From assembly GCA_963717465.1 (NCBI GenBank), contig OY970340.1, forward strand, positions 2,080,001 to 2,144,000: a stretch of 64,000 nt of DNA, written 5' to 3'. Source of the DNA: Candidatus Bathyarchaeota archaeon. Lineage in GTDB: Archaea; Thermoproteota; Bathyarchaeia; Bathyarchaeales; Bathycorpusculaceae. The position numbers and the translations under genes are program-made. The notes beneath the pieces are model-generated. The model was not told the DNA's origin and made no database searches. It saw only the letters and a program-made list of their open reading frames with translations. Shown here piece after piece: positions 3,195 to 31,637 of this stretch. The first letter of the stretch is position 1. Each line of letters begins with the position of its first letter.

Positions 3195-4118
3195 TTGGAT
3201 TTAGCCGATTTGATTCAAGAATCAAAGATTGCTTCAAGCAGCCATTTTATAGATGTTGTTGAATCTGCCATTAAATTGTTGAAAAGTGAAACTGGCAAAG
3301 TTGGCAACTTTATAGTAACAGAGCGTTTAGTTCGACTTGCACCCGAAGGCGAGGCATTAATAATCGGCGATTTGCATGGGGATCTAAAAAGCCTTAGCAT
3401 GATCCTGACTGAAAGCGAGTTCATAAAAATAATGCAGCAAACAAAAAAGGCAAAACTGGTTTTTCTTGGCGATTACGGCGATCGTGGACCTTACTCAGTT
3501 GAAGTATACTTTGTTATTTTATCTCTCAAACTTGCTTTTCCTGAACAGGTCTTTCTTTTACGTGGGAATCATGAGGGTCCAAAGGACTTGATGGTTTCGC
3601 CGCACGATTTGCCCCTTCAGTTTAAGTCTCGATTTAAGGATGATTCTGGCGAGGCTTATTTGAAAACCCGTAAGCTATTTAATTATTTGTACAACGCGGT
3701 TTATGTGAGTGAACGTTACCTTATTGTTCATGGTGGTCTGTCGCCTGAAATCAGAAGCCTAAAAGACATAGCGCAAGCCAGCCAGCGACATCCGAAGGAA
3801 GCAACGTTGGAGAATTTACTTTGGAGTGACCCAGATGAAACAATAGATGGCACCGCTTCTTCACCTCGCTGTGCAGGATTACATTTTGGTAAAAAAGTTA
3901 CTGAAACAGTTTTAGAAAAATTGAATGCTAAAATTTTGATTAGAGGACATGAACCGTGTGAGCAAGGTTTCAAGATTAACCATGATGGAAGAGTACTAAC
4001 ATTATTTTCCATGAAAGGCGCGCCTTACTTTAACGAGTATGGCACTTACTTGCAAGTTGATTTATCCTCTAAGCCGCAGAACGCAAATGATCTAGTCTTG
4101 TTCATACACAAGTTTTAG
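3195..4118 (+). CDS. Ser/Thr protein phosphatase, PPP family
   Basis: GDLHG, GDYGDRG, LRGNHE, VHGG, LLWSDP, IRGHE motifs. Confidence 0.92.
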   Translation: MDLADLIQESKIASSSHFIDVVESAIKLLKSETGKVGNFIVTERLVRLAPEGEALIIGDLHGDLKSLSMILTESEFIKIMQQTKKAKLVFLGDYGDRGPYSVEVYFVILSLKLAFPEQVFLLRGNHEGPKDLMVSPHDLPLQFKSRFKDDSGEAYLKTRKLFNYLYNAVYVSERYLIVHGGLSPEIRSLKDIAQASQRHPKEATLENLLWSDPDETIDGTASSPRCAGLHFGKKVTETVLEKLNAKILIRGHEPCEQGFKINHDGRVLTLFSMKGAPYFNEYGTYLQVDLSSKPQNANDLVLFIHKF

Positions 4119-23024: not shown

Positions 23025-23688
23025 TCAAAAAAGTTTCGTCTGCTGAGTATTTCTACCGTTTAATGCTTTTTTTGCCGGTTTCCATGATTTCCTTATGCAA
23101 TCTGGAAAGTCATTGTTTTTTTTCAGCCATTGATTGATGAAAATCATGGTTTTCTCGTCTGTTAGGTATCCACTTCCAAAATCGCCATACTTATTTCTTA
23201 AGTCAGCTATTTCTTGGTCGCGTTGAACTTTTGCGATAATAGAAGCAGCAGAAACTATCGGGTATATTCTGTCCGCTTTATGCTTAGAGATTATTTTTGA
23301 TTTAGTTGTTAAGCATTCCTGAATGTGCTGTCTAAAACGATCTTCAACGCACGTCTGCTGCGTCAACGTAGACCTCGTCCGGTTTTAGAAAATCAATTAT
23401 TTTCGCCATTGTTTGCGCTTCAAGCCTATTCAGTTTATGGAGTTTTCTTTGACTTTCAACGACCTTATCGATTTCGCTTGGCGCAAGTTTTATCGTATGA
23501 AAACTTTTGGTTAACTTTGTAATTTCAATGTATAATTCTTCACGTTTCTTAGGCGACAAAAGTTTTGAATCTTTCACTCCGAGCTGGCTTAAAAACTGGA
23601 GGTTTTCTGTTTCCAATGCAACTCCCGCAACAACAAGCGGACCAACTACGCATCCACGTCCAGCCTCGTCAACTCCAGCAATTAACAG
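23025..23688 (-). CDS. rnhB: Ribonuclease HII (frameshift near 23349; no canonical start codon)
   Basis: IAGVDEAGRGCVVGPL, GVKDSK, VYVDAAD, VSAASIIAKV, GSGY. Confidence 0.93.
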
Positions 23689-23863
23689 TTCAATACACCC
23701 TTTTTCAACGAGTAACTTGGATAATAGATTTCTTAGCTATAAAATTTTTTCATAAACATCTTCTTCAAGGTATTCAGCGTTCTGTTCAGCCTACCCAAAC
23801 CTAAAACATCAATCTGCACCAAAAGCCGTAATCAGACTGAATTCTATCTGATTTTTCTCTAAG

Positions 23864-23876
23864 AAAGGCTTATAGG
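23864..23876 (+). promoter_or_regulatory. Putative BRE-TATA of the host tRNA-Ala gene
   Basis: AAAGGCTTATAGG about 40 nt upstream of the tRNA 5' fragment. Confidence 0.45.
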
Positions 23877-23912
23877 CTAATGTTACGGGTTATTTTAAAA
23901 GAGCGCCATTTT

Positions 23913-23928
23913 GGGCGGGTAGATCAGT
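23913..23928 (+). pseudogene. 5' fragment (nt 1-16) of host tRNA-Ala(GGC); attL
   Basis: GGGCGGGTAGATCAGT; GGGCGGG pairs with CCCGTCC at 25973-25979, including G3:U70. Confidence 0.88.
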
Positions 23929-24016
23929 ATACGCCCAAAACGAAAGCAACCCGCCCAAAGAAACAATCCAGAAAATAAAAGACGCACTCCAAGCAATCAA
24001 CGAAACCGAAAACCTG

Positions 24017-24958
24017 ATGAAAGCAAAACAAGACGACAACGAACATATAAAAAAGACAAAAAGAACACTAACACGATTAGCATCAGAAACAGACATTTTT
24101 AACCCAACCGCAGTTTTAACATACATAAAAGACTTAAAAAGAGACAAAAAATCAGCCATAAACCAAGACGTAACACCCGACAAACCACTAACAAAAGGCT
24201 ACAAACTAAAAATAATATACGCCTATGCAGTATTTTGCCAAGCCAACGAAATACCTTTCAAACCACCAAAAATAAGTTACGAATCACCAATACCAATAAT
24301 TCCAAGCACAGAAGAAGTCAATCAAATAATAGGATGCACTTCTAACAACTATGCAACAATTTTCACTATAATGAAAGAAACCGCCGTAGAATCAGACGAA
24401 CTACATAAAACATCAAAAAACCAAATTGACAAAGAAAAAGGCATTCTAAGCATTATAGGAAACAAACAACATAGTAACGGAACCTATAACCTCACAATAC
24501 AAACCGCAACAACGCTAAGAATATATTTAGACAAACCAGAAAAGAAAACAAATTTCAAGCGACAAATACCAAAAGAAGAATATCCATTCCCAACAAGAAA
24601 ATCAATAAGCAAAGCATGGTTAGACGCAAGAACCAAAGCATCCATAAAATACCAAAATAAAAACCTCTTAACAATACCATTAAAAAACTTAAGAAACTAC
24701 GCAGGCGCAGTCTATTATTTTACTTATGGCAAAGACGCAATAGCAACACAACAATTTATGAGACATAAAAATTTGCAACAAACAAGCAACTACCTAAGAG
24801 GAATAAAAGGATTCACAATGCGACTACAAAAAATCGGAAAAATCACAACAACCGCGGAAGAAACAATGGAACTAATACTACAAGGATTCAAAGAAGAATC
24901 AGTATTTAATCAAGGAACACCAAACGAAAAACACGTTTTAACAAAAATAAACATATAA
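24017..24958 (+). CDS. Tyrosine recombinase/integrase, divergent
   Basis: KNLRNY, FMRHKN, TSNY; first catalytic Arg position reads ETAVESDEL. Confidence 0.8.
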   Translation: MKAKQDDNEHIKKTKRTLTRLASETDIFNPTAVLTYIKDLKRDKKSAINQDVTPDKPLTKGYKLKIIYAYAVFCQANEIPFKPPKISYESPIPIIPSTEEVNQIIGCTSNNYATIFTIMKETAVESDELHKTSKNQIDKEKGILSIIGNKQHSNGTYNLTIQTATTLRIYLDKPEKKTNFKRQIPKEEYPFPTRKSISKAWLDARTKASIKYQNKNLLTIPLKNLRNYAGAVYYFTYGKDAIATQQFMRHKNLQQTSNYLRGIKGFTMRLQKIGKITTTAEETMELILQGFKEESVFNQGTPNEKHVLTKINI

Positions 24959-24964
24959 ACATAA

Positions 24965-25039
24965 TGGACAAGGGGGGATTTGAACCCCCGACCTCTACAA
25001 TGCCAATGTAGCGTTCATACCAAACTGGACTACTTGCCC
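24965..25039 (-). tRNA. tRNA-Ala(GGC), element-borne, intact
   Basis: GGGCAAG/CTTGTCC-A acceptor with G3:U70, CTACA-TTGGCAT-TGTAG, GGGGG-TTCAAAT-CCCCC; TTTAAA box at 25069-25074; one D-stem mismatch; no encoded CCA. Confidence 0.92.
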
Positions 25040-25333
25040 ATATTTTTTAGTTCTACTCCGTATTACCCTTTAAAGGTTACTAAACAGAAAAGCAAAATAA
25101 AAAAAGGAAAAATAATTATTTATCAACCACCTAAAACACAAAGACAATTAATCAAGCAATAAAAAGCACGGAACAGGTGAACATGCGCTATCACACTTTT
25201 TGCCCACTAAATCACAGTCATATTTCAGGAAAACAGAAAACTAGATTATACACTTAAATGTAAAATACGGGTAAAATTAACAAATCATTCGACCGACCAC
25301 CCAACAATAGAGTTAGCCATTGGTCAATGAATC

Positions 25334-25684
25334 TCATCGATGTTCTATTAGACAGAGTCTGACTCCATTCGGGTCTTCGATAAAGGCACACCTTCCAACG
25401 AGTATGGGAATGGGTTCCATTGTGATCTTAGCACCTTTGGCTCTTAGCTCGTTCAAAGTGGCATTCAAATCCTCTACGTCCACTCCGATTGAATACAACC
25501 CTACTTGATAATGTGGGTCTTCTATAACCTCAATCATGGCATCTCCTTCCCCTTTCAGAAGGGTAATCGTCGATCCTGATCGGGGTTTGTATTGACTATC
25601 AACCGTAAACCCCATGACAGAGGTGTAGAATTTTACCGTTTCTTCCATGTTTTTTACTATCATGGTAGAATATTTAACTTTCAT
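25334..25684 (-). CDS. VOC/glyoxalase family protein
   Basis: [34 protein letters not shown]. Confidence 0.88.
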
Positions 25685-25914
25685 AATTTTAGCAACCTTT
25701 GAATAACTTTTAAAGTTTGCGTTTGAGACAACTGAGGCTTTTTCTTTTTATTAGTTTTTGAAAGCGCAAATAAAATAAACCTGCACTGATGGTAACTTAC
25801 GTTAGAGTGATTGCTATGTCTGGAACAGAAACGTTGCTTCCGTACGTTAACGATAAGAAAAAGCCAACGGAAACGAAAAAACCGTTTTGCACAAAAACAA
25901 TTTGACGACAGGTT

Positions 25915-25983
25915 GATCAGTCTGGTACGATCGCCACGTTGGCATCGTGGAGGCCGCGGGTTCAAATTCCGCCCCGTCCACCA
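25915..25983 (+). pseudogene. 3' fragment of host tRNA-Ala(GGC) including CCA; attR
   Basis: GATCAGTCTGGTACGATC-G-CCACG-TTGGCAT-CGTGG-AGGCC-GCGGG-TTCAAAT-TCCGC-CCCGTCC-A-CCA; local upstream bases cannot form the acceptor stem. Confidence 0.9.
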
Positions 25984-26367: not shown

Positions 26368-26502
26368 TTAAGCAAAGCTTGCTTTATCGACTAGGTGTGC
26401 TGTTCCATCGGGACAGTAGACTTTTCCGCCTTCAGAAACTTTTTGATAGCGCAAAATGCATGATTTCTGCAGTTCGCATCCATCACAATCTCGAGAAATC
26501 AC
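26368..26502 (-). CDS. 44-aa putative metal-binding small protein (absent from ORF track)
   Basis: MISRDCDGCELQKSCILRYQKVSEGGKVYCPDGTAHLVDKASFA; GAGGGGG upstream. Confidence 0.55.
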   Translation of the reverse strand: MISRDCDGCELQKSCILRYQKVSEGGKVYCPDGTAHLVDKASFA

Positions 26503-27156: not shown

Positions 27157-27229
27157 AGCCCGGTGGTGTAGTGGCCAAGCATAGCGGGCTTTGGACCCGC
27201 CGACGAGAGTTCGAATCTCTCCCGGGCTA
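27157..27229 (+). tRNA. tRNA-Gln(TTG)
   Basis: AGCCCGG/CCGGGCT-A, GCGGG-CTTTGGA-CCCGC, GAGAG-TTCGAAT-CTCTC. Confidence 0.95.
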
Positions 27230-27307
27230 CTTTTACACTTGTTAAAGAATACCAACTTTCCCTTTTTCCTTGCTTTGATTTAGTGTTCCTGCCCAGTAGC
27301 CTAAAAG

Positions 27308-28272
27308 TTGGTGTCTCTAAATGGCTTCCGCAAGGATTACTTAAGGCTAAACTTCTCGATCAATGAAATTGTTATACAATTCAAAGAATGGGCTACTGAA
27401 GACACATATATGATACTAAGCAAATGGAACCCTAAAAAGTGGAAAAACGACGTTTTTGCGGTTAAATGTGCAAAACGCGGGAATGATGTTTACCGTAGCA
27501 GGGTTGAGAGTAGATTCAGAGGATTAGCCAATAAGGCTGAGGCATTAGCGTTTTTTAACCCGAAAGCGAGAGGAGCGTTAGCGACCTGAGCATTATGGTT
27601 AACATTGATTTACGATACTGAACTCTACGCTTACAAGGATGCATGGGCGAAGATCGGTGTTGAGTTTAACGGTTTCATTGCTTACGTTAGGAGCCGTTTT
27701 GGTAAGGTTTCGTGTTGTCGGGTGTTTGAGTCTTTTGAGAATGGTTATCCTCATATCCATTGTATTTTGCTTTTTCAAGAATACTCCTTCTTAGTCTTTA
27801 GGGATGGTAAGGGTCACTTTAGAGTAAAAGAGAAAGAGGCTATCGATAGTGTTTGGCATAGTAATGTTGACGTTAAAGCCATGAGTTCTCTGGCTGGCGG
27901 TTTCTCTTACCTTAAGAAATATCTTTTGAAAGGAATAGATTTTGAGAAGGCTGATTTAAAGGGTTTGAAGCCGTTGGCTTTATGTTGGTTGTTTAGGAAA
28001 GGGCTTTTTCTGTTAGTGGCAGTTTCCGTAAGGCGTTATCCGACTTGATAATGGATTTGCAGTAGTCAAACAAGAGGTTGGTTCAGGTTACGCTTTTGGG
28101 TGAGGAGATTGTTGAGGAGAAATTCTATGTGTTAGGTTTTGTTAGTTCCGATGTTATAGGTATTGAAAAGGATTGTTGGTTTGCGATTTTATCCTCTAAG
28201 CAAATTGATTCTTTGAATAGCCATCTATCAAAATTCAAGAATTTTGTGATGGATTTTTCAATCTTGAATTAA
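27308..28272 (+). pseudogene. Rolling-circle (HUH) Rep, interrupted by in-frame TGA 27587-27589 and a shift near 28000
   Basis: Motif I-like LWLTLIY, motif II GYPHIHCIL, motif III YLKKY. Confidence 0.8.
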
Positions 28273-31289: not shown

Positions 31290-31637
31290 GTTTTCTTAAG
31301 AATTATCTTCGGCTTAATTTTGACTTGCGAAGATTTGTAGGCGAATATCAGGATTGGGTTTCTGAAGCTACTTATATGGTTCTTGTTCGCTGGAATAAAG
31401 AGGAATGGAAGAATGATGTTTTCGCCGTTAAAGGTGCTAAGCGAGGAAATGATGTTTACCTAAGCCGAGTTGAGAGTAGATTCAGAGGATTAGCCAATAA
31501 AGCTTTGAGGAGTTAGCGTTTTTTAACCCGAAGGCGAGGGGGGCGTTAGCGACCTGAGCGTTATGGTTAACATTGACTTGCGATACTGAACTCTGCGCTT
31601 ACAAGGAGGCATGGGAAAAGATTGGCGTTGAAGCGCG
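31290..31637 (+). pseudogene. Second, truncated HUH Rep remnant
   Basis: WKNDVFAVKGAKRGNDVY..RVESRFRGLANKA; aligns by eye with 27330-27665. Confidence 0.8.

Follow-up and report, generated by a model that had tools for sequence, protein, structure and literature searches.

A 64,000-nt stretch of the genome of a Candidatus Bathyarchaeota archaeon (GenBank assembly GCA_963717465.1, contig OY970340.1, positions 2,080,001 to 2,144,000), referred to here as the window, contains the host's tRNA-Ala(GGC) gene in two pieces, separated by a 1,993-bp element that carries an integrase gene and a second tRNA-Ala(GGC). The best reading of this locus, to which we assign a probability of roughly 70%, is disrupt-and-complement integration, in which a mobile element breaks a host tRNA gene and supplies the replacement itself. 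All coordinates are positions in the window; G000 denotes the host genome (a single contig of 3.05 Mb with 40.1% G+C), and other G and L labels denote genomes and loci of relatives.

A tRNA gene in two pieces

The 5' piece of the host gene comprises 16 nt at 23913-23928 (+), namely the 5' strand of the acceptor stem, positions 8-9, the 5' strand of the D-stem and the start of the D-loop, and this exact 16-mer occurs only once in the genome. The remaining 62 nt, which include the CCA end, are found at 25922-25983 (+). Between them lies the insert at 23929-25921 (one copy of the 7-bp core counted), where G+C content is 35.7% compared to the genomic 40.1%. The insert is bounded by a 7-bp direct repeat, GATCAGT, located in the D-arm; core copy 1 (23922-23928) forms the last 7 nt of the orphaned 5' piece, and core copy 2 (25915-25921) forms the last 7 nt of an arm borne by the element. 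A first-pass annotation of this DNA held that joining the two pieces through one GATCAGT restores the gene, and this proved correct. In a script-made excision product (sequence up to 23928 joined to sequence from 25922, one repeat kept), ARAGORN calls a canonical 78-nt tRNA-Ala(GGC) whose acceptor stem is paired throughout and includes G3:U70, whose D-stem has 4 bp and whose 3' end is CCA, while the same program calls no tRNA at the computed circular junction of the element. The host attachment site (attB) of this tyrosine-integrase element lies within a host tRNA gene.

Inspection of 20 same-genus Bathyarchaeia loci (L011-L030), picked from a longer list of places, reveals a contiguous tRNA-Ala(GGC) gene in every one of them, as the first-pass annotation had anticipated. 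The first 16 nt of these genes either equal those at 23913-23928 or differ at positions 6 and/or 16, and all 20 contain the D-arm core GATCAGT or a one-letter variant of it. Roughly 35-55 nt upstream of the relatives' genes is a conserved promoter block that remains recognisable at 23860-23879 of the window, within a stretch of native promoter and leader (23858-23912, +) that is homologous to the upstream block in the 20 relatives and now faces the integrase gene. Downstream synteny is kept as well, with a conserved block of 145 nt and the gene for a membrane protein of 107 aa. The simplest history of the locus is the insertion of 1,993 bp into a formerly whole gene.

One expectation concerning the relatives had to be abandoned, namely that an empty site would lie between rnhB and tRNA-Gln. 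There, rnhB, tRNA-Ala and tRNA-Gln are not adjacent and rnhB is tens of kb away, so no such empty site exists as stated. In the window, rnhB (RNase HII) occupies 23025-23700 (-) as two overlapping open reading frames (ORFs) that both match PF01351, with a frameshift near 23344-23366; the split reflects either a pseudogene or an indel introduced during assembly. The 145-nt block downstream of tRNA-Ala, at 26368-26502 (-), is ~80% conserved across the genus and encodes a 44-aa Cys-rich small ORF (CxxC...CPDG); it has no match in Rfam.

Across the genus, a pattern search returned 105 matches in 100 of 120 genomes. The 20 genomes lacking a match were considered as carriers of further split genes, and the five checked have a T-arm intron instead. 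In these five (L108-L112, from G016, G047, G104, G115 and G099), tRNA-Ala(GGC) contains a T-arm insert of ~28 nt and has no encoded CCA, and the insert is probably a non-canonical intron in a gene targeted by several integrases. Elsewhere, the part of tRNA-Ala(GGC) from anticodon to T-loop occurs twice on the same strand, 9-10 kb apart (G126:C4:101425/111330, G089:C6:536382/545174 and G094:C13:80535/90513), which probably reflects conventional restoring elements, and in G022 an integrase gene stands directly behind tRNA-Ala(GGC).

ARAGORN identifies three tRNAs in the window, namely Ala(GGC) at 24964-25040 (-), Ala(GGC) at 25906-25983 (+) and Gln(UUG) at 27157-27230 (+), which score 61.3, 43.0 and 62.1 bits, respectively, with Rfam. 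The second of these is the right junction itself, where the element-borne arm (25906-25921, +) stands in register with the tRNA 5' end and is identical to it at 11/16 nt. The first-pass statement that neither junction rebuilds the tRNA is upheld with respect to function, but not with respect to detection, as the hybrid still exceeds the Rfam gathering score of 29. Its acceptor stem contains the mismatches C1-C72 and A5-C68, and A3:U70 replaces G3:U70; by comparison, the intact orthologue in G003 scores 60.8 bits. G3:U70 is the alanine identity element of tRNA-Ala, and because it has been replaced, the hybrid is presumably dead. The left junction retains just 16 nt of tRNA. The common core appears too short to yield a functional tRNA at either junction, and no uninterrupted tRNA is rebuilt from an element-borne 5' half in the manner of pTN3-like integration. 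The host 3' piece additionally carries C61>T, converting the G53:C61 pair to G53:U61, and T at this position is unique to the host piece among the 105 matches. This substitution is a possible sign of decay in the orphaned gene. A stronger version of the argument, in which three unique substitutions indicate decay, was discarded because the genus-wide survey identifies C47 as a normal variant and leaves only C61>T as unique.

The left edge of the element contains two inverted copies of the tRNA leader and 5' end (23932-23959, -), which are putative integrase-binding sites. Positions 23932-23940 are an inverted copy of 23909-23917 (9 nt), and positions 23949-23959 are an inverted copy of 23910-23920 (11 nt). 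An 11-nt inverted repeat within the 66-nt junction region was reached by 0/2000 shuffles and by 1/2000 random 66-nt windows. In G068, next to an integrase of 58% identity, this inverted motif recurs with identical spacing to the junction. On this basis, the junctions look like a real recombination site.

The element's own tRNA and integrase

The element's own tRNA-Ala(GGC) lies at 24965-25039 (-), antisense to the integrase gene and beginning 6 nt past the integrase stop. This tRNA has the same anticodon as the disrupted gene, retains G3:U70 and does not encode CCA; its 61.3 bits are close to the score of the intact G003 orthologue, and its G+C content of 51% is the lowest among the 38 tRNAs of the genome. 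CCA is likewise absent from 17 of the 38 host tRNA genes, and a CCA-adding enzyme is present (PF09249, 138.8 bits). A promoter region at 25040-25085 (-) includes a TATA-like block at 25063-25075; the metagenome contig L088 shares this block, from which the chromosomal promoters of tRNA-Ala in G114 and G100 differ. The tRNA is 96-97% identical to the chromosomal tRNA-Ala(GGC) of these two same-genus species, and the identity ends exactly at positions 1 and 73. A raw chromosomal capture together with flanks was rejected, since promoter and 3' flank diverge from G114 and G100 just outside residues 1-73. These comparisons establish a foreign origin for the internal tRNA. Its D-arm lacks the 7-bp core, such that the replacement should escape the integrase.

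Whole-genome ARAGORN analysis returns Ala(UGC), Ala(CGC) and only two copies of Ala(GGC), namely the internal tRNA and the right-junction hybrid; such a count had been called for by the first-pass annotation. No third tRNA-Ala(GGC) was found among the 38 tRNAs of the 3.05-Mb genome, or among 48 when introns were allowed. In ORFs of at least 300 aa, GCC and GCT account for 15,467 of 30,673 alanine codons (50.4%). The disrupted gene was a single copy and presumably essential, and the internal tRNA is likely expressed, charged and needed. Two tRNA-Thr(GGU) genes also occur in this genome 600 bp apart on the same strand (G000:C1:2554848-2555524).

The integrase, of the tyrosine-recombinase family, is encoded at 24017-24958 (+) and measures 313 aa from the first ATG. 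Its match to Pfam PF00589, at 21.4 bits, falls under the cut-off of 27.1, whereas a profile of its family matches archaeal XerA (5hxy) with E 6e-5. Database searches returned 56 homologues at E<=1e-10, many of them named integrase by their sources; the closest (P0002 to P0005) are 73-82% identical and encoded on metagenome contigs. The protein retains every invariant column of the family alignment (A1), and a homologue with 81% identity (P0003), which aligns from the same Met, is also called with a length of 313 aa. The integrase frame is open leftwards to 23876, across the left junction. With respect to SSV-type integration, the ORF from the ATG at 24017 is intact, and the conserved N-terminal frame crosses the junction without a start codon.

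The remaining content of the element consists of a cargo gene and a short captured fragment. The cargo gene (25334-25684, -) encodes a 116-aa VOC/glyoxalase-fold protein (PF00903, 58.4 bits), for which matches at E<=1e-8 exist in only 3 of 119 other genus genomes, all at 34% identity. The fragment (25745-25870, +) is 126 bp from the xpf/ERCC4 nuclease gene of another Bathyarchaeia lineage and comprises its promoter and first 16 codons. At the nucleotide level it is 76-81% identical to the 5' regions of xpf in G042, G093 and G100; the host's own xpf is intact elsewhere in the genome. A non-coding RNA at 25745-25870 was ruled out, as the stretch corresponds to the promoter and start of xpf. The first-pass inventory of an integrase, a VOC protein and an antisense tRNA is accurate for these three and incomplete in that it missed the xpf piece, which by its sequence is the scar of an earlier gene capture. 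It points to the right end of the element and in a circle would read towards the integrase.

No virion, replication or immunity genes are present in the 1,993 bp, which sets the element apart from a temperate virus. The sole PHROG match is between the VOC protein and one family of unknown function. The integrase has no match in phage or plasmid records, a scan of viral-contig proteins with the integrase returned only a 34-residue match at 49% identity, and viral contigs contain no exact copy of the internal tRNA. Nor was another copy of the element found in the host genome.

The pairing of integrase and tRNA, which the first-pass annotation had proposed to look for in integrase homologues, recurs outside this genome. 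On metagenome contig L088, an integrase C-terminus of 87% identity is followed by an antisense tRNA-Ala(GGC) of 65.9 bits. L088 shares the tRNA promoter block with the G000 element and carries different cargo. Its tRNA has A7:U66 where that of G000 has G7:C66, a compensatory pair change that argues for selection on the tRNA. In a peat run, one contig extends from the end of the integrase gene through the tRNA to 25083 at ~95% identity. Since the pair recurs on both contigs, it is a conserved module and not a one-off.

More distant relatives of the integrase are associated with conventional arrangements. The nearest is a sister element in G068 (record CP170178.1), whose integrase belongs to the same subfamily (the 58%-identical protein mentioned above) and, like that of G000, is co-oriented with and just downstream of the targeted RNA gene. 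It differs in that it targets the RNase P RNA gene at the 3' end and leaves that gene complete (Rfam 174.6 bits, full model), and in that the attachment repeat of ~22-30 nt is present in three copies that mark two tandem elements. The sister element itself measures ~4.2 kb and carries a Rep-like gene and no tRNA. Given the complete RNase P RNA gene and the attachment repeats, this nearest relative behaves conventionally. At the G068 locus (L053, 1395-8711), the three copies of the RNase P RNA 3' end bracket the two elements, one of which encodes the integrase and, in an ORF of 318 aa, a Rep-like protein; integration at an RNase P RNA gene is unusual.

Family members of 32-40% identity stand head to head with tRNA 5' ends (L063, L065, L096 and L097). 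In G084, two copies of a 36-nt 5' part of tRNA-Pro(GGG) lie 6.4 kb from each other next to an integrase and the tRNA is rebuilt, an arrangement that conforms to the pTN3-like pattern as set out in PMC8371274. Separately, at L060 (~3551-3670), L062 and L059, tRNA-Pro(GGG) stands head to head with an integrase homologue and carries a 41-70-nt insert at D-loop 16/17, the same position as the insert in G000; one of these genes scores just 29.4 bits with Rfam. Such inserts could be an element-delivered intron or a scar.

Further to the right in the window, directly after tRNA-Gln(UUG), positions 27308-28272 contain small ORFs, one with a weak Rep-family match (PF23343, 22 bits). A block at 27440-27663 is repeated at 31406-31631 with 85-89% identity, and a beta-propeller-repeat surface protein follows each copy. 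These regions (27308-28272 and 31406-31631) may represent a second integrated or duplicated element that lacks an integrase.

Competing explanations for the locus

Under disrupt-and-complement integration, a small element would enter the host's single native tRNA-Ala(GGC) by site-specific recombination across the 7-bp D-arm core, an insertion that we infer was made by the element's own integrase. The 5' 16 nt and the native promoter would stay at the left junction, while the right junction would become a hybrid without G3:U70. Because the element shares only the core and a degenerate arm with its target, no functional gene would be rebuilt. Decoding of GCC and GCU would then depend on the element's tRNA and its own promoter, and this tRNA, which as an allele originates in another clade of the genus and has no core in its D-arm, would remain uncut by the integrase. 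The element would represent an archaeal, non-viral counterpart of the 'tRNA-dependent lysogeny' of phages.

Several observations weigh against this account. The integrase may be impaired, in that a family-conserved N-terminal stretch lies upstream of its first ATG without a start codon, and once the element is closed into a circle in silico, the integrase frame meets a TGA one codon ahead of the core. Where XerA has its first catalytic Arg (TGxRxxEL), Glu stands in each of the 9 members of the family that were aligned (E159, window ~24389-24391), although the family is clearly mobile. The internal tRNA has a D-stem mismatch, C12-A23, that is absent from L088, G114 and G100, and the evidence for decay of the host 3' piece, one unique substitution, is thin. 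In 101 genus and 401 class genomes, the closest integrase has 58% identity, the split itself was found only at this locus, and the evidence comes from one integration event in one assembly.

The possible integrase defects also bear on the notion of a decayed remnant, which we regard as unlikely. Here, an element that once targeted the 5' half of the gene would have supplied a good 5' part and promoter; after a tRNA of the same anticodon was gained, selection on the rebuilt gene would have lapsed, the arm and the integrase start would have decayed, and a fixed fossil would remain. The rebuilt tRNAs of distant family members (G084, and the head-to-head integrases of L063, L065, L096 and L097) fit such a past, as do the right-end arm that is still in register at 11/16 nt, the conserved N-terminus that has no start codon and the TGA in the circular-form frame. 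In PMC10865867, too, such a route is discussed as a possible origin. The distribution of changes is harder to reconcile with it, as 5 of the 16 positions of the arm differ, against a single unique change in the 62 nt of the host 3' part. This disparity misfits decay over equal time after integration, and the arm was therefore already poor at entry. The integrase, moreover, keeps all invariant columns of its alignment, and P0003 shares both the 313-aa length and the Met from which it aligns. Even if the remnant history were true, the present state of the locus would still be disrupt-and-complement.

Two further explanations would leave the host gene in working order or remove the insert altogether, and both appear very improbable. 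A working gene would require that the 1,993-nt insert be spliced like a giant bulge-helix-bulge intron, or that the pieces be joined in trans. The insert does sit at D-loop 16/17, where the tRNA-Pro(GGG) genes of three relatives carry their 41-70-nt inserts, the D-stem, a 3-nt bulge and a helix with 3 of 4 bp can be drawn as a relaxed version of the motif, and a clade of the genus has the T-arm intron in tRNA-Ala(GGC). However, no strict bulge-helix-bulge was found, and the scan did not separate the junction, at 12/16 with 3/4 central and 2/4 outer helix pairs, from ARAGORN intron calls at 9-13. The precursor would run for 2 kb through a coding gene and antisense through the tRNA and VOC genes, no complementary leader and trailer are seen, and C61>T is unique to the host piece. 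An assembly artefact, in which the assembler misplaced the insert into the tRNA gene, draws on the completeness of 88% for a single contig and the frameshifted rnhB, from which it follows that assembly errors exist in this genome, and on the lack of an independent contig over either junction. In four public runs, which contained only small shares and short pieces, no contig over either junction and no attB or attP (element attachment site) form was found. The runs yielded sequences that match the integrase (24222-24527) and the right flank perfectly; as these miss the junctions, the reads neither confirm nor question the assembly and say nothing on excision. A misplaced insert is difficult to square with base-exact boundaries, a 7-bp duplication, a perfect tRNA upon removal and inverted copies of the target 5' end at the element's left edge. 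A misjoin would also leave the genome without an intact native tRNA-Ala(GGC) elsewhere, and none was found.

Returning to disrupt-and-complement integration, a tentative and rather improbable extension would treat the element as a selfish tRNA-allele replacement cassette, whose integrase destroys the common D-arm allele and installs an uncuttable allele from another clade. As the broken host gene decays, the host could no longer lose the 2-kb element, and integration would shift the integrase from the captured xpf promoter to the strong promoter of the tRNA. Should cassettes of this kind prove common, they would cause tRNA alleles to turn over and orphaned pieces of tRNA to be left behind, and they would bear on the origin of split and intron-bearing archaeal tRNA genes. 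The element in any case offers a concrete route by which mobile DNA might break an archaeal tRNA gene, replace the allele and become hard to lose, and with one integrase, one tRNA and two short sites it would make a very small test system.

Relation to known integration systems

Integration of archaeal elements by tyrosine recombinases was reviewed in 2021, and there the tRNA is described as restored in all integrations (PMC8371274). The pTN3-like integrases of Thermococcales covered there likewise use an attB in the tRNA 5' part and leave the tRNA body behind element DNA. In contrast to the locus described here, integration of pTN3-like elements, as that review summarises it, restores a tRNA gene without interruption, with expression driven by the promoter region of the integrase, and splits the integrase gene, whereas here the tRNA is not rebuilt and the integrase ORF from the ATG is intact. 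A 1.8-kb recombinase element at tRNA-Thr(GGU) of Caldiarchaeum subterraneum (Sugahara et al. 2012, PMC3293823) is similar in its size of ~2 kb and in being flanked by an orphan 5' fragment and a tRNA body. Its tRNA is reconstituted at the junction with an extra intron and no replacement tRNA is carried, unlike here.

The closest parallel is found in bacteria. Tyrosine-integrase actinobacteriophages, among them Fionnbharth (K4), Cluster L and others, have their attB in a single-copy tRNA gene, and in mycobacteriophages tRNA-dependent lysogeny has been proven, in that no tRNA is rebuilt and a phage tRNA of the same isotype is needed by lysogens (Guerrero-Bustamante and Hatfull 2024, PMC10865867). 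The common core is 10 bp in those phages and 7 bp here, and in neither case is a functional tRNA rebuilt. The systems differ in that the present host is archaeal and the 2-kb element lacks virion, replication and repressor genes, in that the core is placed towards the 5' end, in the D-arm, where that of the phages is in the 3' half, and in that the integrase comes from a distant family specific to archaea. For the phages, the need for the tRNA has been proven; here it is only presumed. In the same source, prophage Lj965 of Lactobacillus johnsonii is reported as another bacterial case in which the tRNA is not rebuilt and a cognate tRNA is encoded.

Every testable sequence-level prediction of the disrupt-and-complement strategy held, but the first-pass suspicion that it was undescribed was wrong for bacteria, since PMC10865867 already describes the strategy for actinobacteriophages. 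Among the listed titles of literature that names tRNA-dependent lysogeny, none concerns archaea. What appears new is the combination of an archaeal host, a 2-kb non-viral element, a D-arm crossover, a replacement allele without the core and a native tRNA promoter that faces the integrase. Under this reading, the locus would provide a clean counter-example to the standard archaeal account of a tRNA rebuilt at every integration, as given in PMC8371274. It would carry a mechanism proven in mycobacteriophages in 2024 into a second domain of life, and show it in a minimal element that is not a virus.

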